Shown here in pieces: positions 4,840 through 55,225 of a stretch of DNA of 61,854 nt. The notes beneath the pieces are model-generated. The model was not told where the DNA came from. It made no database searches and saw only the letters and a program-made list of their open reading frames with translations. A program made the position numbers and the translations under genes. The first letter of the stretch is position 1. Each line of letters opens with the position of its first letter. This DNA comes from Myxococcota bacterium (GTDB lineage Bacteria; Myxococcota_A; Polyangia; HGW-17), in NCBI GenBank assembly GCA_036802685.1, contig DAIRVS010000005.1, positions 10,027-71,880 of the forward strand. Reading direction: 5' to 3'.

Positions 4840-7443
<2,604 letters not shown>

Positions 7444-7473
7444 GATTTCCTCACGCGCGCCAAAGTCTGGGCA

Positions 7474-7502
7474 ACTCTAAAGACATGCCGGACCAAAGTC
7501 AA
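7474..7502 (-). promoter_or_regulatory. Putative sigma70-type promoter of the kinase gene
   Basis: Minus strand TTGACT-N17-TAGAGT about 30 nt upstream of the kinase ATG. Confidence 0.5.
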
Positions 7503-7522
7503 TCCGATATTCCAAGGATTTT

Positions 7523-8737
7523 TCATATTTTACCGGCTCCGGACGGGTGCGTCGTCCCCGGATCCCCGGAGCAGGGGTAAATATTTTTATCAAGCCAATC
7601 CAACCCCTCTTCGAGGTTCTCCTCGGTGAAGAGGCGGATCCCGGAGTCGCCCAGGCGCTGGGCCAGGGGGCCGGGTCCCGGCACACGGGCGCCGCGGCAG
7701 GGGACCCGGAGGGTGCCGCAGGAGGGGCTGTTTTCCTTGAGGAAGGCGGCGAGGACGCCGGCCTCCCGGCACCAGGCGGCGACCCGTTCCACCGCGTCCA
7801 CCAGCGCGTCGGTGACGTCGGTGCCGTGCTCGTCGCGGATCAGCGGTGACCGGGCGCACGCGGGTCCGGGCTCGTTCTCGAGCTGGATCCGGGGGCGCGG
7901 GACGCCGAGCCCGGCGAGGACCTCGGGGCACACGGGGAGCACGTCCAGGCGCCCCAGGGCGCCGATCAACCCGGGGGCGGCGCGGCTCTGCCCGTCGTAG
8001 CGGCAGGGGAAGCCGAGCAGGCAGGCGGACACGGCCACGGCGGGGCGGCCGGGTGCGGCGGGAGAGGGCGGCGCGGTCCCTGCGTGATGGGCGGTGCAGA
8101 AGGCCTCCCAGAGGGGGCGCAGGGGCGCCGGCGGAGAGAAGGTGCGCGCACGGCCGTCCACGATCAGGAGCTCATGACGGCAGAACCGTGCGAGGGTCTC
8201 CGGGTACAGGCGGTGCTCATGCTCCAGGATGCGGGCTAAGAGGGAACCGACGTCCAGATCGGGGGGGACACGGAAGCAGGCCTGATCGAGGATTGGCCCC
8301 GTGTCCATGCCGGCGTCGACCAGATGGACGGTGCAGCCCGCGTACCTCACGCCGGCGGCGTGGGCCTGCTCCTGGGCGTGCAGGCCGGGGAAGGCGGGCA
8401 GCAGGCTCGGGTGGATGTTCAGCACGCGGCCGGGGAAGGCCGAGAGCAGGGTCGGGCCCAGGATGCGCATGTAGCCGGCGAGGGCCACCACGCGGACCCC
8501 GTGGGCGCGCAGGAGGTCCACGAGGCCCTCCTCGAACCGATGTTTCTTCACACCGGGGAGTTTCTCATGGGTGAACGCGGGGATCCCGGCTTCCCGGGCG
8601 AGCTCCAGGGCGGGGGCGCCGGGCTGGTCGGAGACGACGCAGGCGATGCGAAAGGGACAACCGGGACGGCGGGCCCGTGCGATCAGGGCGGCGAGGTTGG
8701 AGCCCCGGCCCGAGACGAGCACGCCGATGGGGGTCAT
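7523..8737 (-). CDS. purN: Phosphoribosylglycinamide formyltransferase fused to a C-terminal DUF523 (TudS thiouracil desulfidase-like) domain
   Basis: ATG at 8737 overlaps the purM stop (ATGA); 404 aa. PurN motifs GVLVSGRGSNL, LAGYMRILG, NIHPSLLPAFPG, VDAGMDTGPI. DUF523 motifs VSACLLGFPCRYDG, CPEVLAGLGVPR, LKENSPSCG. Confidence 0.88.
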   Translation of the reverse strand: MTPIGVLVSGRGSNLAALIARARRPGCPFRIACVVSDQPGAPALELAREAGIPAFTHEKLPGVKKHRFEEGLVDLLRAHGVRVVALAGYMRILGPTLLSAFPGRVLNIHPSLLPAFPGLHAQEQAHAAGVRYAGCTVHLVDAGMDTGPILDQACFRVPPDLDVGSLLARILEHEHRLYPETLARFCRHELLIVDGRARTFSPPAPLRPLWEAFCTAHHAGTAPPSPAAPGRPAVAVSACLLGFPCRYDGQSRAAPGLIGALGRLDVLPVCPEVLAGLGVPRPRIQLENEPGPACARSPLIRDEHGTDVTDALVDAVERVAAWCREAGVLAAFLKENSPSCGTLRVPCRGARVPGPGPLAQRLGDSGIRLFTEENLEEGLDWLDKNIYPCSGDPGTTHPSGAGKI

Positions 8738-9780
8738 GTCCAACCCAGACGGGTGGAGCGGTCTTCCCCCGGCCGCGGCGAGATGGCGCCCACGCGATGG
8801 AAGTTCTCCCCCATTTCCGTGAGTCGGGCGCCCACGGCGCCCTCGTCCTCGGGGTGGACGACCATCAGGAAGCCCAATCCGCAGTTGAACGTGCGGGCCA
8901 GCTCCTGGGGTGCGACTCCGGCGTCCCGGATGCGGGCGAAGACCTCGGGCAGCGGCCACGACGAGGGCTCCAGATCCATGCCCAGGCCGGGCGGCACCGA
9001 GCGCGGCGGGTTTTCAATCAGGCCGCCCCCGGTGACGTGCACCATGCTCTGAACGAGCCCGGCTTCGATGAGGGGTAGGACTTGGTTTACATAAATACGG
9101 GTGGGGGTCAGCAGCTCCTGGCCGACGGTGCGGCCGGTGTCGTCCCAGGGGGCGTCCACGGGGAGTCCGAGCACCTCGAGGAGCATCTTGCGCGCCAGGC
9201 TGTAGCCGTTGGAGTGCAGGCCCGAGGAGGGTAGGGCGATCACCACGTCTCCGGCCCGCACGCGCCCGGCGTCCGGGAGGTTGGCGCGATCCACGACGCC
9301 GACGGCGAAGCCCGCCAGGTCGTACTCCCCGGCCTGGTAAAAACCCGGGAGCTCGGCGGTCTCGCCGCCCAGCAGCACGACTCCGCAGGACGCGCACGCA
9401 TCGTAGATCCCCTGCACGACCTTGGCCGCGACGGGGACCTCCAGTTTTCCGGTGGCGAAATAATCGAGGAAAAACAACGGCTTGGCCCCGCAGACGAGGA
9501 TGTCGTTCACGCTCATGGCGACGAGATCCCAGCCGATGGTGTCGTGGACCCCGGTGGCGAAGGCGAGCTTGAGCTTGGTGCCGACGCCGTCGGTGGAGGC
9601 CACCAGGATCGGCTCCCGGTAACCGGGGGGCAGGGCGAACAGCCCGCCGAAGCCGCCGATGCCGCCGAGCAGGAAGGGACTCTTCTGCGGGCGGGTGATG
9701 CGCTTGATTTCCTGAACCAGAGCGTCGCCCGCGTCGATGCTGACGCCGGCGCTGGCATAATCATGGGTGTTCGTCGTCAT
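8734..9780 (-). CDS. purM: Phosphoribosylformylglycinamidine cyclo-ligase (AIR synthetase)
   Basis: 348 aa. YASAGVSIDAG, GGFGGLF, STDGVGTKL, DYFATGKL, GGETAELPG, SGLHSNGYSL, HVTGGG, RTFNCGLG. Confidence 0.97.
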   Translation of the reverse strand: MTTNTHDYASAGVSIDAGDALVQEIKRITRPQKSPFLLGGIGGFGGLFALPPGYREPILVASTDGVGTKLKLAFATGVHDTIGWDLVAMSVNDILVCGAKPLFFLDYFATGKLEVPVAAKVVQGIYDACASCGVVLLGGETAELPGFYQAGEYDLAGFAVGVVDRANLPDAGRVRAGDVVIALPSSGLHSNGYSLARKMLLEVLGLPVDAPWDDTGRTVGQELLTPTRIYVNQVLPLIEAGLVQSMVHVTGGGLIENPPRSVPPGLGMDLEPSSWPLPEVFARIRDAGVAPQELARTFNCGLGFLMVVHPEDEGAVGARLTEMGENFHRVGAISPRPGEDRSTRLGWT

Positions 9781-9806
9781 GGCGTTTCCTGTCCGGGGTT
9801 GAATAT

Positions 9807-10535
9807 TTAATTCAATCCTTCTTCAGTCGTGGTGGACTGCACCGCGGGGCAGCGGTAGGCCTCTCCGCCGCCTGCATTCGTATCCAGGCAACAGTGGATC
9901 GGGGCGTCCTGGCTCTTGTTGCAGGTGTGGCCCAGATATACCGTGTCCGGGAACGTGGCCGTGGCGCAGGAGCCGATGTTGATGGCCAGGCAACCGTTGC
10001 AGATGGTGATCGGCAGATTGATGCTGTTGGTCTCGATGTCGGACCCGCCGCGCTCGCCCACCAGTTGGATCTTGGCCACGGCCTCGACGAACTGCCCGGC
10101 GCCCACGCTCAGGCGGCCGGCCAGGTTCGGGGGGATCACGTTGACCTGCAGCGAGCGGGTCTCCCCAGGGCTGATCGTCACGAAGGTGTAGTCGGCGAAG
10201 CTGGTGAAGTCAGAGAGTCCGGCGCCGGCTGCGCCCAGGCTCACGTCAATCTGGGCCGACTTCATCTCCACCGCGTTGAGTTCGATACCGTGGCTGTCGA
10301 CGGTGGACTTGAGGTTGTTGGACACCACCAGCCACGCGTAGTACTGCGGTGTGATGCCGTAGGCGGCGGCGCCGATGTCGAGGACACCGTGGCTGACGAA
10401 GTTGTCCGAGATGGTGTTCGACGCCGAGCAGCCCTCCTCGGGGGCCTGGTTCTGCAGGATGACCAGCGAGGAGCTGTTCTCCGCGCAGGCGGTCAGCGCG
10501 ACGACGAGCAGGATGATGAGCGATGCGTGTTTCAT
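9807..10535 (-). CDS. Hypothetical Cys-containing lipoprotein at the end of the pil operon
   Basis: 242 aa, lipobox LTAC, beta-rich core, C-terminal Cys cluster (CNGCL, CATA, HTCN, HCCL, YRCP). Starts 27 nt after the pilQ stop. Confidence 0.8.
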   Translation of the reverse strand: MKHASLIILLVVALTACAENSSSLVILQNQAPEEGCSASNTISDNFVSHGVLDIGAAAYGITPQYYAWLVVSNNLKSTVDSHGIELNAVEMKSAQIDVSLGAAGAGLSDFTSFADYTFVTISPGETRSLQVNVIPPNLAGRLSVGAGQFVEAVAKIQLVGERGGSDIETNSINLPITICNGCLAINIGSCATATFPDTVYLGHTCNKSQDAPIHCCLDTNAGGGEAYRCPAVQSTTTEEGLN

Positions 10536-10562
10536 GAGTCACCTCACCCGGGATCCCAGGGG

Positions 10563-13500
10563 TTAGTCCTTCGTTATTATACCCGACCGGTTCAAAACGC
10601 GAGGGGTGATGAAGATTAAAAGTTCGCTGCGTGTGTCCTTCTTGTATTGGTTTTTGAACAGCCATCCCACGATGGGGATGTCGGCGAACCAGGGGACCTT
10701 GCGATAGATCAGGCTGCTCTGGCGCTTGTAGATACCGCCGATGACAGCGGTGTCTCCGCTCTTCACCAGCAGCTCGGTCTTCGCGCTCTTCTTGGAAATG
10801 CCCAGCGAGCCGTCTGCGCCGCGGTTGGTCAGGTCGGGCTCGTCCTTGGTGACCTCGATCTTCATCTGCACCATGTTGTCGTTGGTGACGTGCGGGGTCA
10901 CGGACAGGCTCAGCACCGCCTGCTTCATGATGACGGTGTTGCCCTGGGCCGAGCTCTGGGGATACGGGATCTCCACGCCCTGGCTGATCTTCGCCTCGAC
11001 GTTGTCCAGGGTGGTGATCTTGGGCGCCGCGATGGAGCGGACGTGGCCGATCTCCTCCATGGCCGAGATGCGCAGGTTGATGTTGACCGCGCCAGACAGG
11101 CTGCCCAGGGTCATGCCCAGGGCGCCGCCGGCGCCGCTGCCCGTGTTGGCGGGCAAGTTCACGGCGAAGTCGGGGTTGGCCGCGCCTGCCGAGGAGATGC
11201 CGCCGGTCTTGGTGAGCGTGTCCATGTTGCCGCCGGCCAAGCCGATGTTGGATGGGAAGATCAGGCCGGTGGGGTTTCCCGAGGCCGAGTTGGCCAGAAG
11301 CGAGCCACCCCACTGGACGCCGATTTCGCGCAGGAAGGTGGTCTCGGCCTCGACGATGCGGGCCTCGATCTGCACCTGCGGGGTGGGCAGGTCCAGGGAG
11401 CGGACCAGCTCCTGGGCCACCTTGAGCTTGGAGGGGACGTCCACGTAAATGATGACGTTGGTGCGCTTGTCGAAGGACACCTTGCCCCGGGAGCTCATCA
11501 CGTTGGCCTCGATGGTCTTGGCGATGTCCTCGACGTTGGAGTAATTGATGGGGATCAGGCGCGTCTCCGTCGGGATCATCTTCACCTCGGTCTTGGTGCG
11601 CGCCAGTTGGTCCTCCCGCTCCTTGTTCAACTGCTCCAGGGTGGCGATGCGGATGATGTTGCCGCCCTCGTTCACCCAGTCCAGGCTCTTGGACTTGAGG
11701 ATGACGTCGAAGGCACGATCCACGCGGACGTTGGTGAGCTTGATGGAGATGGTCCCCTTCACGTCGTCCGGGATGACCACGTTCTTGCCCCACACCTCGG
11801 CCACCAGGCGGATGACGTTGTGTAGATCGGCGTCCTTGAAGTCCAGGTCGACGAACCGGCCGCTGTAACCGCCGCCGCCGGTGCCGGTGCGACCGGCTGG
11901 TTTGATACCCTTGCGGGCCGACGAGGGGGCGGTGGGCAGGTTGTTCTTGACCGCCGTCTGGGTGTCGACGTAGCCGCCGACCTCGGAGGGAGGCACGGAG
12001 GACTTCTGGAACCGGCGGACCTCGGCGACGGTCTTGGGCACCAGGATGAGGATCTGGTGGCCGTTGCGGCGCACCTGAAGGCTGCGGGTGCCGGCGGTGT
12101 GGAGCTCGACGACCGCTGTCGGCGTCTTGCCGGTGGTGCGGTTGAAGGTCAGCACGCGGGAGACAGGCCCCTGGTAGGAGGCCGTGTCCATGTTGCGGCG
12201 CAGATCCTGTCGGAACTGGCCTTGCGGGAAGGTGATCGTCCACAGATCACCCTTCTGGGCGAGGGTCTCGGGACCGGGCGCCGCGGTGAATCGCAGCACG
12301 AGGTGGTGGGACCATGGAGAGTCCACGAATTCCACGTGCTCGACCTGGGCGGTGCCGGTCGGGGTCGGTGCCGGTGCCGGGGTCGGGGTGGGGGCCGGAA
12401 CGGGAGTCGGAACGTCCTTCTCCACTGTGGCGACCTTGCGCTCGGCGAGGACTGCGAGCTCGCGCTGGAGCTGGACCTTGCGGGTCTCCAGTTCGCGGAT
12501 CTCGGCTTCCCGCGCCTTCTTTTCCTGGTCATCGCGGGTGGTCTTGCGCCGGTTCATCTCGTCGAGCTGGCGGCCCAACTCCACCCGCTTGCGCTCGAGG
12601 TCGGTCAATTCGGTCTGCGCCTTGAGCTTGTCCATCTCCAGGCGGCGCAGGCTCTCCCGCGTGGCTTCGAGGGCGGCCAGGTCCCGCTCGAGCTTGCCTT
12701 TTCGGGTCTCGAGCTCGGCGATCTGCGCGGTCCGTCGCTTCACCTCCTCGGGATCGACGCGTCCGGCCTTCGGGTCGGTTCGGACCGCGGTCTCGAGCTG
12801 GGTCTTTCTGGCCTTGAGGGTCTCCAGTTCGGCCTGGATCTGGGTCTTGCGGGCATCGAGCTGGCGGAGGTTCTCCTGATCCTGCTTCACGCGCTCGGCG
12901 AGGGCCTTCGCCGAGAGGGTCAGTTCCCGGTATTCCTTCTCCTTGATCGCCTGTTTGCGCTCCAGGGCCTCGAGGGCGGCCCGGTTCGCCTCCAGTTTTG
13001 TCTCCGTGCGCTTCAACTGACCTTCGCGCTCTGCGAGCTGCCGGATGAGCTCGGCCAGGCGGCGCTTCTCGGCGGCGGTCTGCCGGGAGATGCCCTCCAG
13101 CCGGGCGTTGAGCTCCCGCAGTTGGCCACGGGCCTCGTCGCGAGACTGGGAGATCATGATCAGATCCTGGGAGGCGGCTTCGTAGCGGGTCCGGGCCTCC
13201 TCGAGCTCTGTCCGGGCCTTGGCCAGGCGGCCACCCAGCGTCTTGACCTCGGCCTCACCCTCGCGGGCGGCCTTCTCCCACCGGGAGGCCTGCTTCTCCA
13301 GCCGGGCGATCTCGGTCTCCCGCTGCTGCTGGCGCTCCTTCAGGCGGACCAGCTCGCGGCGCTGTCCTTCGCGCTCCAGTTTCTCCTTCTGGGTCTCCTC
13401 CTGAGCGAGCAGCTTCTGGTGCTCGGTCCGGGCCGCCTTCAACTGCTTCAGGCTCTCCTGTTCCCGGCCCTTGTGGACCTGGATCATGGCCAGTTCGTCC

Positions 13501-14906
13501 TTCTCGCGGGCCAGCAGCGTCTCGATGCCACGGCGGCGCTTCTCGAGGACGGTCGCGCGCTCCTGCTCCTCGGCGGCGAGCCGGGCGGCCTGCTTCTGGA
13601 GCTCTTCGGACTTCTTGCGGGCCGCCTCCAGGGAGGCCTGGAGCTGGCGCTCCTTCTCGACGGCCTGGTGGAGGCTGTCACGCCGGGCGGCCAGTTCGTC
13701 GGTCTCCTTGCGAAGTTGGACCTTCTGGGACTGCAGTTCGCCGGTCTGGCGGCGCAGCTCGGCGATCTCGGCGGTGAGCTTGCGATTCTCGAGCTCGGCG
13801 TTGGTGCGGAGGGTGGAGAGTTTCTGCTCCTCCTCGGTCAACTGGCGCTGGAGCTCGGCCCGCCGGGCCTCTACCGCCTTCACCTGTGCCTGCGCCGTCT
13901 GCAGCCTGCGCTCGGATTCGCCGACGCCCTTCTCCAGGGTGGCGAGCCGGTCAGCCGCCTCCCGGGTCAGTTTCTGTCCGTTCTGCTCCTGGGTCCGCGC
14001 CTGCTTGCGGAGGGTCTCGATCTCGGCCCGGGCGGTCTGGATCTCCCGCTCGATCTGCCGGCGACGGTCGAGCCCCTCGTTGAGCTCCCGGGTGGCCTTC
14101 TCCAACTCGGCTCGGCTCTTCTCCCGCTGGACCTCCATGGTCCGGGTCACGGTCTGGAGCTCGGTGAGGCGGGCGCGGGCCTTCTCCTCGCTCTCCCTGG
14201 CCTGGGCGAGCTGGGCCTGCAGGGTCTTCATCTCCGCAGCGATCTTGTCGCGGGACTCGGACAGGGCCTTCACCTGGCGGCGGGCCTCCTCCTGCTCCCG
14301 GGCGAGCTGGTCGCCGGTCTTGCGCGAGTCCGTCAGGTCGGTCTTGCGTCGGGCGCTCTCGTTCTCGAGACGCGCGCGCTCGACGCGGAGCTTCTCGGCT
14401 GCGGCCTGGGCCTCGCGGAGCCGATTCTCCATCTCGGTGGCCTGCTTCTGCAGGCGGGCGAGGCGCGCGGTGGCCTCCTCGGTGGAGGGCGGCGGCGCCT
14501 GTTCAGGCGTGAGCACCAACTGGACCGTCTGATCCTTCGTCAGGACCTGGTAGCCGGCCTTGCGCGCCAGAAAGACGGTGACCCGGCCCTTGGTCTGCCC
14601 CGTCTTTCCGTGGTTGGACAGGGACACCGAGGAGACCGTCCAGTCGTCCACATCCAGGGGGGTCGCGGTGTCCTCGAACCAGGTCGAGGCCAGCTCGAGG
14701 ACGATCCGGGGCGGTGAGTCCGCCGCGAAGGCGGTGAAGTTCACGCCGCGGGTGCCCGGGACGTGGACGACCGTCTTGCCGTCCGCGCGCTCGAACCGGA
14801 TCTGCCGGACCCTGTTGATGTCCTGCCCCCAGGACGCTCCCGGGACGAGGCAGGCGCCCAGAAGGGCGACGAAGAGGATTCTATGGATGGGGTGGCGGCT
14901 GTTCAT
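10563..14906 (-). CDS. pilQ: Type IV pilus secretin PilQ with a very long coiled-coil insertion
   Basis: 1447 aa. Signal peptide, AMIN-like domain, about 680 aa of E/K/R/Q/L-rich coiled coil, PT linker, second AMIN-like domain, N0 (YSGRFVDLDFKDADLHNVIRL), secretin domain (PQVQIEARIVEA, APKITTLDN, VPWFADIPIVGWLFK, ELLIFITPRV). Follows pilMNOP. Confidence 0.93.
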   Translation of the reverse strand: MNSRHPIHRILFVALLGACLVPGASWGQDINRVRQIRFERADGKTVVHVPGTRGVNFTAFAADSPPRIVLELASTWFEDTATPLDVDDWTVSSVSLSNHGKTGQTKGRVTVFLARKAGYQVLTKDQTVQLVLTPEQAPPPSTEEATARLARLQKQATEMENRLREAQAAAEKLRVERARLENESARRKTDLTDSRKTGDQLAREQEEARRQVKALSESRDKIAAEMKTLQAQLAQARESEEKARARLTELQTVTRTMEVQREKSRAELEKATRELNEGLDRRRQIEREIQTARAEIETLRKQARTQEQNGQKLTREAADRLATLEKGVGESERRLQTAQAQVKAVEARRAELQRQLTEEEQKLSTLRTNAELENRKLTAEIAELRRQTGELQSQKVQLRKETDELAARRDSLHQAVEKERQLQASLEAARKKSEELQKQAARLAAEEQERATVLEKRRRGIETLLAREKDELAMIQVHKGREQESLKQLKAARTEHQKLLAQEETQKEKLEREGQRRELVRLKERQQQRETEIARLEKQASRWEKAAREGEAEVKTLGGRLAKARTELEEARTRYEAASQDLIMISQSRDEARGQLRELNARLEGISRQTAAEKRRLAELIRQLAEREGQLKRTETKLEANRAALEALERKQAIKEKEYRELTLSAKALAERVKQDQENLRQLDARKTQIQAELETLKARKTQLETAVRTDPKAGRVDPEEVKRRTAQIAELETRKGKLERDLAALEATRESLRRLEMDKLKAQTELTDLERKRVELGRQLDEMNRRKTTRDDQEKKAREAEIRELETRKVQLQRELAVLAERKVATVEKDVPTPVPAPTPTPAPAPTPTGTAQVEHVEFVDSPWSHHLVLRFTAAPGPETLAQKGDLWTITFPQGQFRQDLRRNMDTASYQGPVSRVLTFNRTTGKTPTAVVELHTAGTRSLQVRRNGHQILILVPKTVAEVRRFQKSSVPPSEVGGYVDTQTAVKNNLPTAPSSARKGIKPAGRTGTGGGGYSGRFVDLDFKDADLHNVIRLVAEVWGKNVVIPDDVKGTISIKLTNVRVDRAFDVILKSKSLDWVNEGGNIIRIATLEQLNKEREDQLARTKTEVKMIPTETRLIPINYSNVEDIAKTIEANVMSSRGKVSFDKRTNVIIYVDVPSKLKVAQELVRSLDLPTPQVQIEARIVEAETTFLREIGVQWGGSLLANSASGNPTGLIFPSNIGLAGGNMDTLTKTGGISSAGAANPDFAVNLPANTGSGAGGALGMTLGSLSGAVNINLRISAMEEIGHVRSIAAPKITTLDNVEAKISQGVEIPYPQSSAQGNTVIMKQAVLSLSVTPHVTNDNMVQMKIEVTKDEPDLTNRGADGSLGISKKSAKTELLVKSGDTAVIGGIYKRQSSLIYRKVPWFADIPIVGWLFKNQYKKDTRSELLIFITPRVLNRSGIITKD

Positions 14907-30080: not shown

Positions 30081-30725
30081 TCAGAAGAACGAGAGCGGCG
30101 TCTCGGGCTCGAACAGGATCACGAAGGAGCAGGTCGTGTGGCCGGTGGTCATGCAGTTCTCCTCGTGGATGCGCAGGCAGGGGATGCGGTGCAGCTCGAG
30201 GATGCCCCCGGCGAAGCCGGAGATCACGCTGCAGAACAGGGGCAGGTTCACGGGCCTCGCCAGGGCGTGGAACGCGATCTGGGAGGGGGAGACCCGCTCG
30301 TCCACGGCCGCCTCCAGGGGAAGGAACCAGTTGGGCAGTCGCTCGAGACCCCGCTGGAGCCGGGCGGCGACGTGGAGGATGGCGGTGGACCGCTTCTGGT
30401 GGAACATCCGGGACAGGGAGTCGAGCTGGGCCACGGTGAGATCGCCGACGAACTTGCCGGCGTGGGAGGTCACGAACCGGCGTCCCCAGGCGGCGCCGAA
30501 GTCCGCCAGCATCGGGTGCATCTGCATGTCCACTGCAGCAAGCAGGATGGAGAATTCGCGGGCGGAGACCCAGGCGTCGGGCTCCCCCTCGCGGGCGAAG
30601 ACCATCTTGAGGGTGGCCGGCAGCAGGGAGAGGAATCGCGCGAAGGCGACTTCGCCGATGGTCTCGGTGAAATACTCGCACAGATCGCCGAACACCTCCT
30701 GTTTCACCAGGAGCTCGGGGTTCAT
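30081..30725 (-). CDS. V4R/HNOB-like small-ligand-binding domain protein
   Basis: 214 aa; ATG overlaps the sigma-factor stop (ATGA). C-terminal FCSVISGFAGGILE...IHEENCMTTGHTTCSFVI resembles the V4R Cys pattern. Confidence 0.6.
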   Translation of the reverse strand: MNPELLVKQEVFGDLCEYFTETIGEVAFARFLSLLPATLKMVFAREGEPDAWVSAREFSILLAAVDMQMHPMLADFGAAWGRRFVTSHAGKFVGDLTVAQLDSLSRMFHQKRSTAILHVAARLQRGLERLPNWFLPLEAAVDERVSPSQIAFHALARPVNLPLFCSVISGFAGGILELHRIPCLRIHEENCMTTGHTTCSFVILFEPETPLSFF

Positions 30726-31396
30726 GGCTGCACCCCCGATCCCTGGCGGAGGTGGTCGATGACGCGAGCGTGGAGCCTGCAGGCCCAGCTCTTGGAGCGG
30801 CCCTTCTGCCGGGCGAACTCGTCGAGGGAATGACCGTCGTGATAGACCGCCCGAACCAGCTCCTGCCACGGCTCGGGCAGCTCCGCCACCTGGGTGCGGA
30901 CCCAGGCCAGCTCGCTGCGCCGCTCGACCTCGTCTAACCCCTCGCCGCTGCCGGCGTCGGGGAGCTCGTCGAGGCGCTCCGAGGAGAGGCGGTAGCAGGT
31001 GGTCAACCCCGCGAGGGTGGAGGAGAGGCGATCCACCAACTCGGCGGTGGAGGGGGCCGCGGGACCCCTCTGCAGGGGCAAACTCTTCTCCTGGAGATAG
31101 GAGTTGGCGGTCTCCTCGGCGATGAGCTCGGTCTGGTGCCCGATCTGGAACCACTGGCGGCGCACGCCGTCGAGGATCGCCCCCTTGATCCGATAGTAGG
31201 CGAACGTGGAGAACTGGAAACCGCGCTGCGGATCGTACCGGCGTGCGGACTCGATCAGGCCGATCGTGCCCATGTTGATGAGCTCGTCCACCTCGATCTT
31301 CCGATGGACCAGGCGATGCACGTCGTTGGCGATCTTCCGGACGAGGTCCAGGTTGCCGTCGACGAGTTCCTGCTGCAGCCGGTCCGGGCGCTCCAT
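30722..31396 (-). CDS. FliA/WhiG-like alternative sigma-70 family factor
   Basis: 224 aa. Region 2 DELINMGTIGLIESARRYDPQRGFQFSTFAYYRIKGAILDGVR. Region 4 SLDEFARQKGRSKSWACRLHARVIDHLR. Confidence 0.9.
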   Translation of the reverse strand: MERPDRLQQELVDGNLDLVRKIANDVHRLVHRKIEVDELINMGTIGLIESARRYDPQRGFQFSTFAYYRIKGAILDGVRRQWFQIGHQTELIAEETANSYLQEKSLPLQRGPAAPSTAELVDRLSSTLAGLTTCYRLSSERLDELPDAGSGEGLDEVERRSELAWVRTQVAELPEPWQELVRAVYHDGHSLDEFARQKGRSKSWACRLHARVIDHLRQGSGVQP

Positions 31397-31403
31397 GATC
31401 GTC

Positions 31404-32171
31404 TCACCGGTGTTTGAGGGGGCGGGCCTGGAAGCGCCGCGTGCCGTCGGGATCCTCTCCCACCAGATCGAACTGCAGCACCTGCATGCTCAGGCGGGCC
31501 TTGTTCTTGCTGGGCAGCCACACCTCGAGCATGTCGCCGGAGTCGACCTTTTGTACGCGGCAGGAGCCGAACTTGAAGTGCTCGACGATGTCCCCCGCGC
31601 CGGGCAGAGCGAAGCCGTCGTTGGAGACGCCTCCTGCGGCGGCGGCGCTCTCGGAGACGAGGGTGGGCGACTCGGTCTCGGGTTCGGCAGGTGCGGCGTC
31701 CGATGGACCCGGGCTCGGTCGGTCCGCCGCTCCGGCGGACTCGGTGAAGCAGTCCGCCCAGGCGGGGAACAGGAGCTTCGGGTCGGAGCGCTTCACGATG
31801 AAGACGTCGTCGAAGGCGTCGAGGCGGAACTCGCACGAAAGGAGGCGGGCGGAGACGAGCAGGCCCCCCACGATCTGAAGTCCGGCCGGTCCGGGGACCT
31901 GCAGGGTGGCCATCAGTTGGGTCTCCACCTTGCCGTCGACGTCGGAGACGAAGCCTGTGCAGCGCAGGATGAGCGCCGGCGCGTTCACGACGAGGGGGAC
32001 GCCGCGGGGTTCGGTCACCAGGGAGAACCCCTCGAGCTGGCCAGCGAGCTCCACGTGGCCGGACCGGATCCCGTGATCGGTGAACAGCCGCGAGAAGGCG
32101 GTCGGCAGCTCCATGCCACGCGTGAAGGAGCCGACCAGATGACGGACTTTCTGGGTATGGACGCAGAACAA
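31404..32171 (-). CDS. PPC/DUF296-like domain protein with a C-terminal SH3/Tudor-like domain
   Basis: 255 aa, TTG start with SD GGAGG. DUF296-like GMELPTAF...IRSGHVELAGQL...ILRCTGFV...IVGGLLVSA. C-terminal PGAGDIVEHFKFGSCRV. Confidence 0.55.
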   Translation of the reverse strand: MFCVHTQKVRHLVGSFTRGMELPTAFSRLFTDHGIRSGHVELAGQLEGFSLVTEPRGVPLVVNAPALILRCTGFVSDVDGKVETQLMATLQVPGPAGLQIVGGLLVSARLLSCEFRLDAFDDVFIVKRSDPKLLFPAWADCFTESAGAADRPSPGPSDAAPAEPETESPTLVSESAAAAGGVSNDGFALPGAGDIVEHFKFGSCRVQKVDSGDMLEVWLPSKNKARLSMQVLQFDLVGEDPDGTRRFQARPLKHR

Positions 32172-32195
32172 GGGGACCTCCGGGTGCCGGGGGGT

Positions 32196-33296
32196 TCACT
32201 CCAGCATCAGGATGCCGGGCAGGTTGTAGCGCTTGACGCACTGCCTGAACTGCCAGCAGTTCGGCCGCTCGAGGCAGTGGTTGGCGTGTACGCGCTGGGA
32301 CTTGTGCAGGTGGCGGATGGCCGCGCCCACCTTCTGGTTCCATTCGCTCTCATGCTCATCGAAGAACCGGGCGGATTTCTGGATCCGGGGCACCAGGAAC
32401 CGCAGATCGGCGGCGATCTGCTTGGGCACGGCCACCGAGAGGTCGCTGAGGACGCCCTTGATGACCTGCGGGTGCATGGAACGGTAGAAGGCCTCGTCGT
32501 CACCCTTCCTGCGGGCAGCCAGCTCCTCGCGGGTCACCAGTTCATGGATCTGGGCCTCCAGCACGCGCATGCTCTCGAAGAGCTCGGACAGGGGCTTCTC
32601 GGGGAGCTCTTGTCCGGTGGCGGCGAGGAAGCGGGCGACCTCGAGCTCGAGTTGGGCCGCCTGCTCACAAAAGACGGTCAACTTGGAGACCACCGGATCC
32701 TGTGCGAGGAAGGAGCACGTCTCGGGCACGTCCATGCCGCACCCCGCGCGTTTGGCGATGTCCTGGGGGCCGGGTTCGGTCTCGGCGGCCGGGGAGTCCC
32801 CGGGGAGCGGCGCGGGCTTCTCGTCGACGACCTTGTCCCCCATGTCCTCGTTCACCAGGCGCTTGTCCCTGGCCTTCTTGGCCGCGGCCTCGCCCTCGGC
32901 GTCGAGGGAGGGGCCTTCGGGGACGATGAGCTCGGGCGTCCGGTCAGTCTTGGGGTCCTGTTCATCCTCGCCGGGCACGCGGGCCCCGCTGATGAGGGTC
33001 GCCACGGCGGTGATGCCCGCGCCGGGGACGCACTCGGCGTGCTTGCCCACCGGGCACTGGTGCTTCTGCAGGTGCTCCTGAAGCTCGGTGAGGAGCTTCT
33101 CGGCCTCGGTGACCTTGTCCTGGACCCGCTTTTCGAGGTCGGCCAGGGTCTCCTTGGCGCACTGGAGGTTGCGGTCCACCCAGTTTCTCGAGTCGAGCCG
33201 CGAGGGATCCTTCTTCTTGCACCCGGTGAGCGACGGCGTCCACGCGGTCGCAAGGGTCAGCAAAAGAATGATCCACCCCGGGTTCGATCTACGCAT
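32196..33296 (-). CDS. Hypothetical helical lipoprotein
   Basis: 366 aa, lipobox LTGC, helical/coiled segments, acidic Pro-rich linker, paired Cys. No family recognised. Confidence 0.75.
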   Translation of the reverse strand: MRRSNPGWIILLLTLATAWTPSLTGCKKKDPSRLDSRNWVDRNLQCAKETLADLEKRVQDKVTEAEKLLTELQEHLQKHQCPVGKHAECVPGAGITAVATLISGARVPGEDEQDPKTDRTPELIVPEGPSLDAEGEAAAKKARDKRLVNEDMGDKVVDEKPAPLPGDSPAAETEPGPQDIAKRAGCGMDVPETCSFLAQDPVVSKLTVFCEQAAQLELEVARFLAATGQELPEKPLSELFESMRVLEAQIHELVTREELAARRKGDDEAFYRSMHPQVIKGVLSDLSVAVPKQIAADLRFLVPRIQKSARFFDEHESEWNQKVGAAIRHLHKSQRVHANHCLERPNCWQFRQCVKRYNLPGILMLE

Positions 33297-33320
33297 GGGG
33301 GGCTCCTTGAGGCAGGGGTC

Positions 33321-33614
33321 TCAGAACGTGAAGTGCTGCTGGATGTCCGCCGCCATCTCGGAGTGGGACAGCACGGGGCGGTTCGCCTGGGGCGCGGTCG
33401 CGGCGGCGGAAACCTCGCCGGGATTGGCCGGTTCATATTCGTCCACGTAGGGCAGCGGGGGCTGCTCGTCCATCAGCGAGCCGTTGAGGAAGGAGGAGAT
33501 GCGGTTCTCCACGAAGGAGCTCATGCTGATGTTGTTCGATTCGCAATAATCGTGAATCCGGTCGTACAGTTCACCGCGGACAGAGATGGAACGACGAGTC
33601 TGCTGTTTGGCCAT
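33321..33614 (-). CDS. Ribbon-helix-helix (CopG/Arc-like) DNA-binding protein
   Basis: 97 aa. Alternating beta strand RRSISVRG followed by two helices ELYDRIHDYCESNNISMSSFVENRISSFL, then a disordered tail. Confidence 0.65.
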   Translation of the reverse strand: MAKQQTRRSISVRGELYDRIHDYCESNNISMSSFVENRISSFLNGSLMDEQPPLPYVDEYEPANPGEVSAAATAPQANRPVLSHSEMAADIQQHFTF

Positions 33615-33667
33615 GGGGATCATCAACCTTCCATTGAGTTGAATGGATGAGCGGCATCCATCCGAAA

Positions 33668-36487: not shown

Positions 36488-37219
36488 TCATTGAATATTT
36501 TTCGGAGCTGGAGAGGTCGTTCCGGTCTGCGGCAGGATGACGGTGCCCACCCGCGCGGCTCCCACGAAGATGTCGAGGTAGGAGCGCCCCGTCTCCTCAC
36601 TGTGCAGGGGTTGCAGCCGGCCGAGATCCACGATGATCCGTCCGTCGGACGGCAACACGCCCAGCGACACGTGTCCGATCCGGGTGAGCACCTCGACCCG
36701 GGAGCCCTCCGGTGGCGGCACCTTGCCGCAGGCGAAGTCCGTGCTCTTGACCTCGCGGCGCACGTCCCCGGCCTCCTCCACGGTGGTCCGCTCCTCGAGC
36801 CGCTTCCACAGCCCGTATCCGCCCAGGGCCAGGCCAGGCCCCAGAAAGACGCCGGTGCCCACCGAGAGGTGGATGGCGCGGGCGGTCCCGGTGGAGTCGC
36901 CAAACCCCATGTAGTAAGACGGGATAGAGAGAGCGGCGACCAGGCTCCCCAGGAGCATGTAATAGGCCGCGCCTGGGCGTGTCTGGGTGCGGACTAGGCT
37001 CATCTTTTCGACGTCGAACTGGACGTGGCGGCAGAACAGGATCTCCTCGAACCGGAGGTGGAGGCGGTTTCCGTCGACCTGGTGGTGCACGCGCAGCTCC
37101 CGGCGGATGTTGCGCTGGACCTCGACCTCGTAGTGGAGGTGCCGGTGGCGGGTGGTGACGTAGGAGCGACCGTCGATGCAGGAACCGAGCAGCAGCAGCG
37201 AGAGGAAGATCGGCTTCAT
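36488..37219 (-). CDS. Hypothetical lipoprotein / membrane protein
   Basis: 243 aa from MKPIFLSLLLLGSC (lipobox-like), with two internal hydrophobic segments. Confidence 0.6.
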   Translation of the reverse strand: MKPIFLSLLLLGSCIDGRSYVTTRHRHLHYEVEVQRNIRRELRVHHQVDGNRLHLRFEEILFCRHVQFDVEKMSLVRTQTRPGAAYYMLLGSLVAALSIPSYYMGFGDSTGTARAIHLSVGTGVFLGPGLALGGYGLWKRLEERTTVEEAGDVRREVKSTDFACGKVPPPEGSRVEVLTRIGHVSLGVLPSDGRIIVDLGRLQPLHSEETGRSYLDIFVGAARVGTVILPQTGTTSPAPKNIQ

Positions 37220-37289
37220 GCCGGACAGGGACAGCGAGGGGCGCCGCCGGTTGCACGAAGTGGATGCGGGGCTCGACATGAAGGCCGGT

Positions 37290-38597
37290 TCATCCCTCGA
37301 TGGTCTTGATGACCAGAGGTCCCGGGGTCGCGGGCGTGTCGCCGATGACGTAGGCGCCGGCGATGCGCGCGAGCGCGTCGTCCAGGCCGCGGTCGTCGTT
37401 GTAGTGCACCTCCACGAGGACGTCCCCCGCCGAGACCGTGTCTCCGATCTTCCGGCGCACGAAGAGGCTCACCCCGGGGTCCACGGGGTCGGTGACCTGC
37501 CGGCGGCCGGCGCCCAGGACCACGCCCGCCATGCCGATGGCGGTGGAGTTCAAGCTCTGCACCACGCCGGACCGATCGGCACGCACCGCTGTGGCGTGGG
37601 CGGCCTTCGCGAACAGGTCCGTACGCTCGACGGCCTCGGGGTTCCCGCCCTGGGCGGCGATCATCTCCTGGAACTTGCGGATGGCCGAGCCGTCGGCCAG
37701 CGCCCGCAGGCAGCGCTCGCGGGCCGAGGCGGGCTCCGGGGCCGCCCCGCCCAGGACGAGCATGTGGGAGGCCATCAGCAGCGTCAGTTCGCGGATGTCG
37801 GAGGGGCCGCCGCCGCGCAGCACGTCGATGCTCTCGATCACCTCGCAGGCGTTCCCCACCGCCTCGCCCAGGGGATCGTCCATCCGGGTCAGGAACGCGG
37901 TCACGCGCTTGCCCGCCCGGGCGCCGATCCCGACGAGGGTGCGGGCGAGCTCCTCGGCCTTCTGCTCGGTGGGCATGAAGGCGCCGGTGCCCACCTTGAC
38001 GTCGAGGACCAGGGCGTCGATACCCTCGGCGAGCTTCTTGCTCATGATGCTCGAAGCGATCAACGGAATCGAGGGGACGCAGCCGGTGGCATCCCGCAGC
38101 GAGTAGATCTTCCGGTCCGCCGGCGCGAGCTCCTCGGTCTGGCCGATCATGCACACCCCCACCTCCTCGACGATGCGGGCGTAGGCATCCAGGGGGAGGC
38201 GCACGGAGAAGCCCGGGATGGACTCGAGCTTGTCCAGGGTGCCGCCGGTGTGTCCGAGGCCGCGGCCCGAGACCATGGGGACGCGCACCCCGCAGGCGGC
38301 GACCAGGGGGGCCAGCGGGATGCTGATCTTGTCCCCCACGCCGCCGGTGCTGTGCTTGTCGACCTTGATTCCGGGGATGTGGGACAGATCCACCACCGTG
38401 CCGCTGTGCAGCATGGCGTTGGCGAACCAGCTCAACTCCTCGCCGTCGAGGCCGCGGATGAAGATGGCCATGATCAGCGCGGCCGCCTGGTAGTCGGGCA
38501 GGGCGCCGGAAGTGTAGGCGCCGATGAAGAAGTCGATCTCGGCCTGCGTAAGTCGCAGACCGTCACGTTTTTTAGAGATGATATCTTGAATCAGCAT
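37290..38597 (-). CDS. pdp: Pyrimidine-nucleoside/thymidine phosphorylase
   Basis: 435 aa. IISKKRDG, DYQAAALIMAI, VDKHSTGGVGDK, SGRGLGHTGGTLDKLESIPG, SIMSKKLAEG, LDVKVGTGAFM. Confidence 0.96.
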   Translation of the reverse strand: MLIQDIISKKRDGLRLTQAEIDFFIGAYTSGALPDYQAAALIMAIFIRGLDGEELSWFANAMLHSGTVVDLSHIPGIKVDKHSTGGVGDKISIPLAPLVAACGVRVPMVSGRGLGHTGGTLDKLESIPGFSVRLPLDAYARIVEEVGVCMIGQTEELAPADRKIYSLRDATGCVPSIPLIASSIMSKKLAEGIDALVLDVKVGTGAFMPTEQKAEELARTLVGIGARAGKRVTAFLTRMDDPLGEAVGNACEVIESIDVLRGGGPSDIRELTLLMASHMLVLGGAAPEPASARERCLRALADGSAIRKFQEMIAAQGGNPEAVERTDLFAKAAHATAVRADRSGVVQSLNSTAIGMAGVVLGAGRRQVTDPVDPGVSLFVRRKIGDTVSAGDVLVEVHYNDDRGLDDALARIAGAYVIGDTPATPGPLVIKTIEG

Positions 38598-38702
38598 GAG
38601 CGGCGCTCCTCCTCGCGCCTCTTGTAACGGAAAAGGCGGACCATGGAAAGCTGTTTGTCGGATCTGACGGGTCGGTCGGGTCCGGCCCTCCCAGAAAATG
38701 GT

Positions 38703-38731
38703 TTGACGATTCGCCCATTGAATTGTATATA
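38703..38731 (+). promoter_or_regulatory. Putative sigma70-type promoter of the TPR/Glt-like operon
   Basis: TTGACG-N17-TATATA, 56 nt upstream of the ATG at 38788. Confidence 0.55.
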
Positions 38732-38787
38732 TTCGCTGCATCACGTCCGGTTGCCCCGGTCGATGAATCAGAGAGTCGAGAGGTATC

Positions 38788-39591
38788 ATGAAAAAGTTGC
38801 GCGTCCTTCCCGTGTTTTTATTTTTGATTTTTGCTGCTTCCAACACGCTGGCCCAGACCGCCCCGACCACGCCGGAGCCGCCGAAGGATCCTGCGACCAC
38901 GACCCCCGCGCCGACCCCGGCCGCGCCCACGGTCGATCCCAAGGCGCCGGCCGTGCCCGTCACGGTGGGCACCGAAGGGGACCGCGACACGAACCCCTCG
39001 CCCGAGAAGGTGCAGGCCACCGAGGTAGCGAGCAACGAGCTCAAGTTGCGCCAGTTGGCCGAGTTGGTCGAGGATCTGAAGAACAAGGTCACGGCCACCA
39101 AGTTCCGCCTCCAGCTGCTCAAGGAGGCCATGACGGCCGAGAAGGAGACCCTCGGCGGCGCCCGGATAGTCCTCAAGCACGTCAACAAGATGGGCGGCGC
39201 CTTCAAGATGGTCCGGCTGCGCTACCTGATGGACGGCAAGCTCGTCGCGTCCTACAGCGACGCCGGTGAGAAGGACCGCGAGGTCCTGGCCAAGAAGGAG
39301 ATCTCCATCCCCGTCGGCCACGTCTCCCCCGGCAACATCCGTTTCCGGGTCTTTGTCACCTATCAGGGCAACGGTTACGGCGTCTTCAAGTACGTCAAGG
39401 AATGGAAGTGGGAGGTCCACAACACCTACTCGTTCAACGCCGAGCCCGGCAAGGACTACACCCTCGAGGTCCAGGGCGTGGAGAAGGGCGGCTGGACGAC
39501 TCCCCTCGACCAGCGGCCGCACATTCAGTTCCAGCTCCAGTCCAAGGCCCTGGTCACCAAGGAAGAGGCCAAGCCGGCCAAGACCAAGTGA
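38788..39591 (+). CDS. Secreted protein heading the TPR cluster (coiled segment plus beta-sandwich)
   Basis: 267 aa, signal peptide, Pro/Thr linker, helix ELKLRQLAELVEDLKNKV, then YQGNGYGVFKY...EKGGWTTPLDQRP. Resembles a conserved myxobacterial hypothetical family (from recall, not searched). Confidence 0.8.
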   Translation: MKKLRVLPVFLFLIFAASNTLAQTAPTTPEPPKDPATTTPAPTPAAPTVDPKAPAVPVTVGTEGDRDTNPSPEKVQATEVASNELKLRQLAELVEDLKNKVTATKFRLQLLKEAMTAEKETLGGARIVLKHVNKMGGAFKMVRLRYLMDGKLVASYSDAGEKDREVLAKKEISIPVGHVSPGNIRFRVFVTYQGNGYGVFKYVKEWKWEVHNTYSFNAEPGKDYTLEVQGVEKGGWTTPLDQRPHIQFQLQSKALVTKEEAKPAKTK

Positions 39592-53912: not shown

Positions 53913-53915
53913 CGG

Positions 53916-54003
<88 letters not shown>

Positions 54004-54053
54004 AAAAATGTCGGCCGTTCCCGCTGCGACCACCGGAGGCCCAGCAGGATCTG

Positions 54054-54140
54054 CGGAGAGAAAGGGATTCGAACCCCCGGTACGATTACTCGTACACCTG
54101 ATTTCGAGTCAGGCTCCTTCGACCACTCGGACATCTCTCC
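54054..54140 (-). tRNA. tRNA-Ser (anticodon CGA)
   Basis: GGAGAGA acceptor stem, anticodon arm CCTGA-CTCGAAA-TCAGG, long variable arm, GGTTCGAATCC. CCA not encoded. Confidence 0.96.
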
Positions 54141-54260
54141 GGATGGAGAAAGGCAGAGTCCTTTCTCAACCGACCCAAACTAATAGAGGAAACAAGTTTC
54201 GATTGCAAGCAAAAAATCGGTCGGACCACCAGCGTTCGGGCGACCGTCCGCCGGCGACGG

Positions 54261-54289
54261 TTGCTTCCGGGATCGGGTGCGGGTACACT
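54261..54289 (+). promoter_or_regulatory. Putative sigma70-type promoter of miaA (likely leaderless transcript)
   Basis: TTGCTT-N17-TACACT; the in-frame GTG at 54296 is 7 nt downstream of the -10; no SD. Confidence 0.5.
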
Positions 54290-54298
54290 CCGTCCGTG

Positions 54299-55225
54299 AT
54301 GACGATCTCGGGTCCTTTCCCCCGCATCCTGGTGCTCGCCGGTCCAACTGCCTCGGGCAAGACCGCGGCCGCGATCGAACTGGCGCTGCGCTTTGGCGGC
54401 GAGATAGTGGGCGCCGACTCGGTGCAGGTGTACCGCCACCTGGACATCGGCTCGGCCAAGCCCACGGCCGAGGAGCGCGCGCGGGTGCCCCACCATTGCA
54501 TTGACCTGCTCGATCCCTGCGACGATCACTCGGTGGGCGCGTACCAGCGCGAGGCCTTGGCCTGCATCCGGGAACTCGTCGGTCGCGGGCGGCTTCCCGT
54601 CGTCGCGGGGGGCACCGGGCTCTACCTGCGCTCGCTCACCCATGGACTGTTCGAAGGTCCCGCGGCGGACCGGACGTTGCGCGCGCGCATGGAACAGGAG
54701 GAGGACGCGGCCCCCGGCGCGCTCCACGCCCGCCTGGCACAGGTGGATCCAGAGACCGCCGCCCGTCTGCACCCCCACGACCGGATACGCCTGATCCGCG
54801 CCCTGGAGGTATGGGAGAAGACGCGCATCCCGATCTCCGAGCACCACCGTCAGGACGCCCTGCGCCCCGCTCCGTGCGAGTCCCTGGTGTTCGTGCTCAA
54901 CCCGCCCAGAGAGGTGCTCTCGGCCCGCATCCGGGAGCGGGTGCGCCGGATGCTGGCGGACGGGTTCGTGGACGAGGTCCGCGCCCTCGTGGCGCGCTGG
55001 GGGGCCGACGCGCGGGCGCTGTCCTCCGTGGGTTACCGGGAGGTGGCCGCCTGCCTGCGGGGGGAGCTGGAGCCATCCTGCCTCGAGGACGAGATCGTGC
55101 GCGCCCATGAACGGTACGTGAAGCAGCAGCGGACTTGGTTCCGGGACTTCCCCCGCCAGGTCGCCTCGGCGGGCGAGCTGCCCCTCGACGAGCTCGCCGC
55201 CTGGGTGGCGTCCCGCACACCCTGA
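54299..55225 (+). CDS. miaA: tRNA dimethylallyltransferase
   Basis: LAGPTASGKT, ADSVQVYRHLDIGSAKP, AGGTGLY, DRIRLIRALEV, VGYREV, YVKQQRTWFR. Start at ATG 54299 or GTG 54296. Confidence 0.96.
   Translation: MTISGPFPRILVLAGPTASGKTAAAIELALRFGGEIVGADSVQVYRHLDIGSAKPTAEERARVPHHCIDLLDPCDDHSVGAYQREALACIRELVGRGRLPVVAGGTGLYLRSLTHGLFEGPAADRTLRARMEQEEDAAPGALHARLAQVDPETAARLHPHDRIRLIRALEVWEKTRIPISEHHRQDALRPAPCESLVFVLNPPREVLSARIRERVRRMLADGFVDEVRALVARWGADARALSSVGYREVAACLRGELEPSCLEDEIVRAHERYVKQQRTWFRDFPRQVASAGELPLDELAAWVASRTP

Follow-up and report, generated by a model that had tools for sequence, protein, structure and literature searches.

The DNA analysed here is a stretch of 61,854 nucleotides from a Myxococcota bacterium (GenBank assembly GCA_036802685.1, contig DAIRVS010000005.1, positions 10,027 to 71,880; hereafter the window, numbered from its first letter). 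On its minus strand, directly behind purM, lies an open reading frame (ORF) in which purN, encoding glycinamide ribonucleotide (GAR) transformylase, runs on into a DUF523 domain of the kind found in the desulfidase TudS (Table 1). By every sequence test that we ran, the product belongs to both PurN and PF04463. Pfam matched the Formyl_trans_N domain (PF00551) at residues 6–182 (E = 2.8e-48, 164.5 bits against a gathering threshold of 26.1) and the 2-thiour_desulf domain (PF04463, formerly DUF523) at residues 234–373, over positions 1–140 of the 141 in the profile (E = 3.8e-29, 101.9 bits against 34.7). No other family, DUF1722 included, was matched by Pfam at E values up to 0.01. The protein also passed the PurN equivalog model TIGR00639 of NCBIfam (197.7 bits, cutoff 150.1), and the PurU, Fmt and ArnA models of that collection all scored far under their own cutoffs.

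The PurN half contains N107-I-H109 and D145, which we take to be the catalytic Asn106, His108 and Asp144 of Escherichia coli PurN. The DUF523 half contains SACLLGFPCRYDG (with C239), CPE (C270, E272) and SPSCG (S337, S339, C340), and aligned to crystallised TudS (PDB 6z92) with an E value of 1.7e-17. In that alignment C239, C270 and C340 fall on Cys10, Cys43 and Cys104; E272, S337 and S339 on Glu45, Ser101 and Ser103; and R246 and Y247 on Arg17 and Tyr18, with R281 at the place of the arginine that orients the glutamate (Arg54 in TudS, Arg60 in RudS). The ATG of the fused gene (8737-8735) overlaps the TGA of purM (8736-8734), forming an ATGA at 8734-8737 that is read as TGGACATGACCCC. The original prediction, made from the letters alone, of a complete PurN and a DUF523 domain with all of their motifs in one ORF coupled to purM, is borne out in each of these respects: 404 codons are free of stops, both families are recognised above cutoff, and the C-terminal domain is matched at nearly full length.

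The same prediction described the connection between the domains as a Pro/Ala linker. Such a stretch is indeed present (PPSPAAPGRPA at residues 222–232), but the junction also holds a conserved, confidently predicted helix (residues 204–218). From the N-terminal side, the order is the C-terminal beta-hairpin of PurN (residues 190–199), a conserved segment L-R-P-x-W-E-x-F-x-x-x-H, and then the variable P/A stretch; H217, within the helix, is near invariant, being at least 90% conserved among fusions. In an AlphaFold2 (AF2) model built on a 108-sequence alignment, with a mean predicted local distance difference test (pLDDT) of 93.5 and a predicted template-modelling score (pTM) of 0.89, the helix was predicted with a pLDDT of about 95, and the P/A stretch, variable in sequence among orthologues, was yet ordered (pLDDT 89–97). 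At the C-terminus, a helix at residues 372–386 was followed by a drop in pLDDT to 50–61. As an internal control, P0021, a short-linker fusion without the interdomain helix, was modelled with the same sequences; it reached a pLDDT of 93.7, but a pTM of 0.68 and a linker pLDDT of 69–79. From pTM alone (0.89 against 0.68), and because of how that score is defined, we infer that the model fixes the two domains of the window-type fusion relative to each other. Foldseek gave target TM-scores of 0.90 to PurN 3auf and of 0.89 to both 2ywr and 1cde. No Protein Data Bank entry spanning both domains was among its best 50 hits, all of which were PurN or formyltransferase structures and are therefore uninformative on the DUF523 half, which the sequence match to 6z92 covers.

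Table 1. The purN::DUF523 gene, its predicted functional residues and the adjoining purM, in window coordinates
Feature	Position	Strand	Basis or remark
purN::DUF523 fusion ORF	7523..8737	minus	404 codons plus TGA at 7523-7525; translation without interruption
PurN (GAR transformylase) domain, aa 1-203, including C-terminal beta-hairpin (E190-193/E196-199)	8129..8737	minus	Hidden Markov models (HMMs), Foldseek
PurN catalytic residues	N107 8417-8419, H109 8411-8413, D145 8303-8305	minus	21-fusion alignment
Conserved interdomain helix, aa 204-218 (APLRPLWEAFCTAHH), H217 at 8087-8089	8084..8128	minus	Conservation and AF2
Pro/Ala-rich connecting segment, aa 219-232 (AGTAPPSPAAPGRP)	8042..8083	minus	Sequence
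DUF523/TudS-like predicted [4Fe-4S] desulfidase domain, aa 233-373	7619..8041	minus	PF04463, 6z92 alignment
Predicted cluster ligands	C239 8021-8023, C270 7928-7930, C340 7718-7720	minus	Homology to TudS
Predicted catalytic residues of DUF523	E272 7922-7924, R281 7895-7897, S337 7727-7729, S339 7721-7723	minus	
Predicted substrate contacts R246 and Y247	7997-8002	minus	Homology to TudS
C-terminal helix (aa 372-386) and low-complexity tail (aa 387-404)	7526..7618	minus	AF2
purM (aminoimidazole ribonucleotide (AIR) synthetase), directly upstream of fusion	8734..9780	minus	PF00586 and PF02769

A maintained and rare domain architecture

Overlapping adjacent purN and DUF523 genes occur in relatives, and a one-nucleotide error in such a pair could mimic a fusion; a frameshift, misassembly or masked stop might in this way have merged two neighbours into one apparent ORF. 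We find this hardly credible for the gene in the window. The identical 404-residue protein was recovered from two independent assemblies, a 69-kb contig in ENA and the Logan assembly of run SRR6007444, and about 20 further two-domain proteins, with identities of 35–84%, were found among 5.8 billion protein clusters. About 25 orthologues in total preserve the reading frame; more than 20 of the fusions stem from different samples and assemblers, and one of them lies on a contig of 8.02 Mb (GCA_963853155.1). The GC content of third codon positions (GC3) stays at 0.8–1.0 throughout the junction without a break, purifying selection is seen across it, and its structured helix is conserved and specific to the fused form. 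The one related contig that does contain a frameshift, encoding P0014 (403 aa), has it within the DUF523 domain: the N-terminal half is almost the same as that of its relative P0005, and the sequence becomes Arg/Pro-rich after CLCGFP. This divergence is an assembly error or a pseudogene, and an exception among the relatives. The claim that the fused ORF is continuous, and not an artefactual merger of neighbours, stands.

Both halves of the protein are under purifying selection. Ratios of nonsynonymous to synonymous substitution rates (dN/dS) were 0.22 for the PurN half and 0.28 for the DUF523 half in the comparison with L170, and 0.16 and 0.25, respectively, in that with L083; the C-terminal tail, which is common to close relatives only, had a value of 0.58. 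Across 21 full-length fusions, the residues N107, H109 and D145 were invariant on the PurN side, as were C239, R246, C270, P271, E272, R281, S337, P338, S339 and C340 on the DUF523 side. Taken together, the dN/dS values and the invariant catalytic columns indicate that both halves have been maintained as working enzymes.

The original suspicion that the architecture is uncommon proved correct. In an exhaustive HMMER search of 1.84 billion representatives at 50% identity, about 11 clusters matched across both halves (P0003, P0015, P0018, P0019, P0020, P0023, P0240, P0241, P0242, P0292 and the N-truncated P0175). The published survey of the DUF523 family counted 58.9% stand-alone proteins and 40.1% fusions to DUF1722 (Jamontas et al. 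2024, PMC11417400), which leaves about 1% for all other architectures by the counts of that paper. In full-text literature searches that combined DUF523 with purN or with terms for purine biosynthesis, DUF523 appeared in none of the papers listed, and no paper linking the two was found. Two known enzymes are combined here in a new domain architecture that is genuine and rare and has been maintained in evolution. Other unusual arrangements were also seen: P0243 (1564 aa), from the HMMER pass, ends in a PurN domain, and DUF523 is combined with PF18907 in P0193 (345 aa) and with the acetyltransferase domain PF13302 in P0228 (270 aa). A homologue search with the C-terminal 200 residues, which omitted the known fusions P0001–P0013, was used only for stand-alone relatives and other architectures.

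The fusions differ from each other at the junction, where four types could be distinguished: a hairpin followed by the helix and the P/A stretch, as in the window; a hairpin with a short linker (P0021); a hairpin joined directly to DUF523 (P0023); and a junction from which the hairpin is absent (P0292). For P0021, P0023, P0292 and also P0017, the nearest relatives of both halves, judged by nearest-neighbour identities, were unfused proteins. These identities, together with a rough neighbour-joining tree that has no support values, suggest more than one fusion event.

The purine-operon DUF523 clade

In a scan of GTDB species representatives with a linker-plus-DUF523 alignment as query, 18 of the best 80 DUF523 loci were linked to pur genes, and the 62 unlinked loci came mostly from metagenome-assembled genomes (MAGs) of Firmicutes and Actinobacteria. 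The linked loci comprised fusions, each with purM directly upstream (L090-L094); purM, purN and DUF523 as separate genes (L109, L116, L126, L136, L150); purN followed by DUF523 (L095); and purM followed by DUF523 without purN (L098, L112, L122, L138, L151, L158). A scan with the full-length alignment, whose peptide patterns were those of PurN only, served as a control from the purN side: in this sample of bacteria and archaea, DUF523 lay within 6 kb of ordinary purN at none of 79 loci among the matches listed. The same scan yielded L001, a Smithella-labelled MAG with the order purM, purN, a 78-nt gap and DUF523. The MAGs with pur linkage are labelled Myxococcota, Haliangium, Kofleriaceae, Desulfomonilia, Desulfobacterales, Desulfobacteraceae, Smithella, 'Deltaproteobacteria' and Nitrospirota.

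In the neighbour-joining tree, the pur-linked DUF523 domains fell into two neighbouring groups with almost no unlinked members. They also share a sequence signature: 22 of 28 pur-linked domains have lost the TudS loop Y110-[DN]-G-[TS]-F114, which 61 of 63 unlinked ones retain, and 8–9 residues are inserted after TudS residue 58. Phylogeny confounds these counts, which describe one clade and not independent events. A distinct and previously unremarked DUF523 clade stands at the end of purM/purN operons in MAGs labelled as three phyla, and the fusion is its end point. The idea, originally proposed for the window, that the fusion ties a TudS-type enzyme to de novo purine synthesis is strengthened by the recurrence of this clade directly behind purN or purM, as a separate and often translationally coupled gene, in MAGs labelled Desulfobacterota, Nitrospirota and Myxococcota.

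Where purN and DUF523 are separate genes, they can be closely coupled, with an ATGA overlap in L136 and L150 and a TAG abutting the ATG in L116. A single base change would fuse such genes, and the fusion most likely arose from operon neighbours by loss of the stop codon. At all of the fusion loci examined except that of P0021, purM lies upstream. The order pilQ, lipoprotein gene, purM, fusion, PEGA kinase, small ORF and FHA protein is shared by P0020, which has only 35% identity to the window protein, indicating that the fusion is old within the window's own lineage. A conserved neighbourhood reaching beyond purM was considered and rejected; pilMNOPQ, the lipoprotein gene and the PEGA kinase occur only in the window's lineage and are absent around P0017, P0021 and P0023. 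A scan of positions 7300-10700 for terminators and promoters gave no signal relevant to the operon that exceeded the level expected from shuffled sequence.

The purM genes followed by a stand-alone DUF523 gene without purN come from MAGs labelled Myxococcota and Desulfobacteraceae. In two Myxococcota-labelled loci, L098 (4992-5537) and L138 (about 1216-1764), the stand-alone DUF523 gene lies directly after purM, with an ATGA overlap in L098, and the N-terminus of its product bears the W-E-x-(L)F-x-x-L-H-H motif of the interdomain helix of the fusion. Judging from that motif, these genes look like descendants of a fusion that later lost its PurN domain. In Desulfosarcina sp. BuS5, a DUF523 (COG1683) protein has been predicted to be a selenoprotein (PMC12013277). 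An in-frame TGA in the DUF523 genes of Desulfobacterota may therefore encode selenocysteine, which matters for calling split and fused forms.

Function of the two-domain protein

On balance, we consider it probable that the gene is genuinely bifunctional, encoding a GAR transformylase and a TudS-type [4Fe-4S] thionucleotide desulfidase, and that it was fused from coupled purM-purN-DUF523 operon neighbours. The N-terminal domain would act as the housekeeping GAR transformylase, converting GAR and 10-formyl-tetrahydrofolate (10-formyl-THF) to formylglycinamide ribonucleotide (FGAR) and THF by means of N107, H109 and D145; we take it as housekeeping because it has the full catalytic set and occupies the usual position of purN behind purM. 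For the C-terminal domain, we infer cluster binding, desulfidase chemistry and substrate from sequence homology, following the residue roles and the [4Fe-4S]/[4Fe-5S] mechanism described for the family (PMC10611767, PMC11417400). In this scheme C239, C270 and C340 would hold the [4Fe-4S] cluster, leaving the fourth iron free to bind the sulfur of the thiocarbonyl group in a thiolated nucleobase or nucleotide. R281 would orient E272 for the activation of a water molecule, with assistance from S337 and S339. The C=S group would thereby become C=O, and the sulfur would leave as sulfide by way of a [4Fe-5S] intermediate. In window-type proteins, the conserved helix at residues 204–218 is predicted to join the domains in fixed packing, and the fusion would ensure that the desulfidase is co-produced 1:1 with the purine enzymes.

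Each half resembles a known protein, with differences. As a PurN (TIGR00639; E. coli PurN 1cde, 3auf, 2ywr), the protein has an equivalog-level score, the Asn/His/Asp set, a TM-score of about 0.9 and the purM-purN operon position, but it is about 200 residues longer at the C-terminus than a typical PurN of about 190–225 residues. Like stand-alone TudS (PF04463; PDB 6z92, 6z96), it has a full-length domain with the three cysteine ligands and the equivalents of Glu45, Ser101, Ser103, Arg54, Arg17, Tyr18 and Pro102; unlike TudS, it has a PurN partner, lacks the Y-[DN]-G-[TS]-F loop with Tyr110, carries the 8–9-residue insertion after residue 58, and belongs to the pur-operon clade. The tRNA s4U8 de-modifying enzyme RudS (TudS-DUF1722), which represents the only common DUF523 fusion with its 40.1% of family members (PMC11417400), is likewise a TudS domain whose role is presumably modified by the fused partner. 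However, the partner in RudS is a C-terminal, tRNA-binding DUF1722, whereas here it is an N-terminal metabolic enzyme, and the 31 residues that follow DUF523 are predicted by AF2 to form one helix and a disordered tail. The absence of DUF1722 from the Pfam matches shows that the fusion is not a RudS.

The preferred substrate of TudS is 4-thiouridine monophosphate (4-thio-UMP) and not the free base, and docking models place Arg17 at the phosphate, Tyr18 and Pro102 at the base, and Tyr110 at the ribose (PMC10611767). By homology, a thionucleotide like 4-thio-UMP would be the default substrate of the fusion protein, in which the corresponding phosphate and base contacts R246, Y247 and P338 are conserved. 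Several observations weigh against this part of the bifunctional reading. The loop that carries Tyr110, which stacks on the ribose in docking, is lost from most of the clade (the 22 pur-linked domains counted above) and kept in nearly all unlinked domains. This deletion and the insertion after residue 58 suggest that substrate specificity probably differs from that of characterised TudS. Moreover, thio-pyrimidine salvage gives no account of why the clade tracks purM and purN across three phyla, and this unexplained linkage leaves room for a purine-related thio substrate. Of the thio-pyrimidine salvage originally proposed, then, the TudS catalytic set is preserved, but the substrate itself is an assumption and may differ with the ribose loop gone. 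It had also been suggested that a pyrimidine phosphorylase gene, pdp, in the same window could supply thiouracil. A pdp-like gene (Glycos_transf_3 and PYNP_C domains; 37290-39206, minus strand) does exist, but we rejected it as a supplier, given that it lies 29 kb from the fusion beside ftsA and ftsZ, and that TudS prefers 4-thio-UMP over the free base (PMC10611767). The Pfam domains of this pdp-like ORF start only at residue 207 of the longest frame, indicating either an internal start or an N-terminal extension of about 200 residues.

The pur-operon clade might instead desulfurate a thiolated purine nucleotide or pathway analogue in place of 4-thio-UMP, serving as a detoxification or metabolite-repair activity that guards de novo purine synthesis. 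Candidate substrates would be 6-thio-IMP, 6-thio-GMP and a thioamide counterpart of FGAR, which would form if a phosphorylated intermediate were attacked by sulfide in place of ammonia. In chemical terms, the C6=S group of thiopurines corresponds to the C4=S group of 4-thiouracil. Such a substrate would explain the position of DUF523 in purM/purN operons, to which it is tied in MAGs labelled Myxococcota, Desulfobacterota and Nitrospirota, including six loci with purM and DUF523 but no purN, and it would be consistent with a pocket whose catalytic core is intact but whose ribose/base side has been reshaped by the loss of the loop and by the insertion. The paper on TudS substrates makes no mention of thiopurines (PMC10611767), and our full-text literature search found no test of a TudS-family desulfidase on thioguanine. 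We nonetheless regard a purine substrate as unlikely: the proposal comes from gene context alone, neighbours in an operon can be inherited together without acting in one pathway, and thiopurine nucleotides and thio-FGAR have no established natural source inside the cell. In addition, R246 and Y247, whose counterparts bind phosphate and stack on uracil in the TudS docking, are conserved, and a pyrimidine nucleotide fits equally well. A bolder version, which we think distinctly unlikely, would make the whole clade, fusion included, a guardian of the purine pathway and not a recycler of tRNA-derived thio-uridylate, with a desulfidase that restores oxo compounds and is docked onto PurN by the conserved helix in window-type fusions. 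Its substrates, 6-thio-IMP, 6-thio-GMP and thio-FGAR, could come from thiopurines in the environment or arise when sulfide attacks phosphorylated intermediates.

The original prediction also raised the alternative of a regulatory or sensory Fe-S module, in which the state of the cluster, responding to O2, iron or sulfide, would determine how stable or how active the attached PurN is. The purine pathway offers a precedent in PurF of Bacillus subtilis, which contains a non-catalytic, oxygen-sensitive [4Fe-4S] cluster with a regulatory or structural role. In both proteins a cluster, predicted in our case, is physically attached to an enzyme of de novo purine synthesis, but that of PurF lies within its own fold, whereas that of the fusion would sit in a separate domain with a complete catalytic apparatus. 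The rigid and compact packing predicted for the window-type fusion, its conserved adapter helix with the near-invariant His217, and the altered substrate loop speak for such a sensor. A pure sensor, however, would have no need of Glu272, Arg281, Ser337, Ser339 and Arg246, which are invariant in fusions down to 35% identity; members of the clade also stand free beside purN, or beside purM with no PurN to regulate, and the adapter helix is missing from the short-linker fusions P0021, P0023 and P0292. Because the catalytic residues are invariant and free-standing members exist, some of them without PurN, we consider a sensory role improbable.

Whichever substrate applies to the bifunctional enzyme that we favour, the findings bear on a family that was characterised only recently, and that has so far been explained wholly by turnover of 4-thiouridine (s4U) in tRNA (TudS) or by de-modification of tRNA (RudS). 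The pur-operon clade, with its coupled genes, apparently repeated fusion to PurN and remodelled ribose loop, points to a physiological role outside this picture. If the substrate is 4-thio-UMP after all, the gene would be a Rosetta-stone fusion of the ordinary kind, between neighbours in an operon. The clade as a whole is a more interesting lead than the fusion alone. A systematic annotation gap is also apparent, since the fusion proteins are named in NCBI and JGI simply as 'phosphoribosylglycinamide formyltransferase'.

Other genes of the window

Five ORFs gave no Pfam match at E values up to 1e-4: a plus-strand ORF at 42311-47341 (1676 aa, GC3 0.92) and those at 101-1747, 30081-33626, 36488-37279 and 55318-56358. 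A minus-strand gene at 4840-7443 encodes an 867-residue Ser/Thr kinase, whose L170 orthologue has Pkinase and PEGA domains. This gene contains a perfect 12-bp tandem repeat (5059-5124; 5.5 copies, 100% match) that encodes (PEMQ)n near the C-terminus. The PilQ secretin (10563-14906, minus strand, 1447 aa) has a very long segment rich in Glu, Arg, Ala, Lys and Gln, at roughly residues 150–800, between its AMIN and secretin parts; by eye, the segment resembles a coiled coil, and its length is kept in L083 and L170. In the longest ORF of miaA, the tRNA isopentenyltransferase gene at 53915-55225 on the plus strand, the IPPT domain occupies residues 171–410, preceded by an apparent N-terminal extension of about 135–170 residues.

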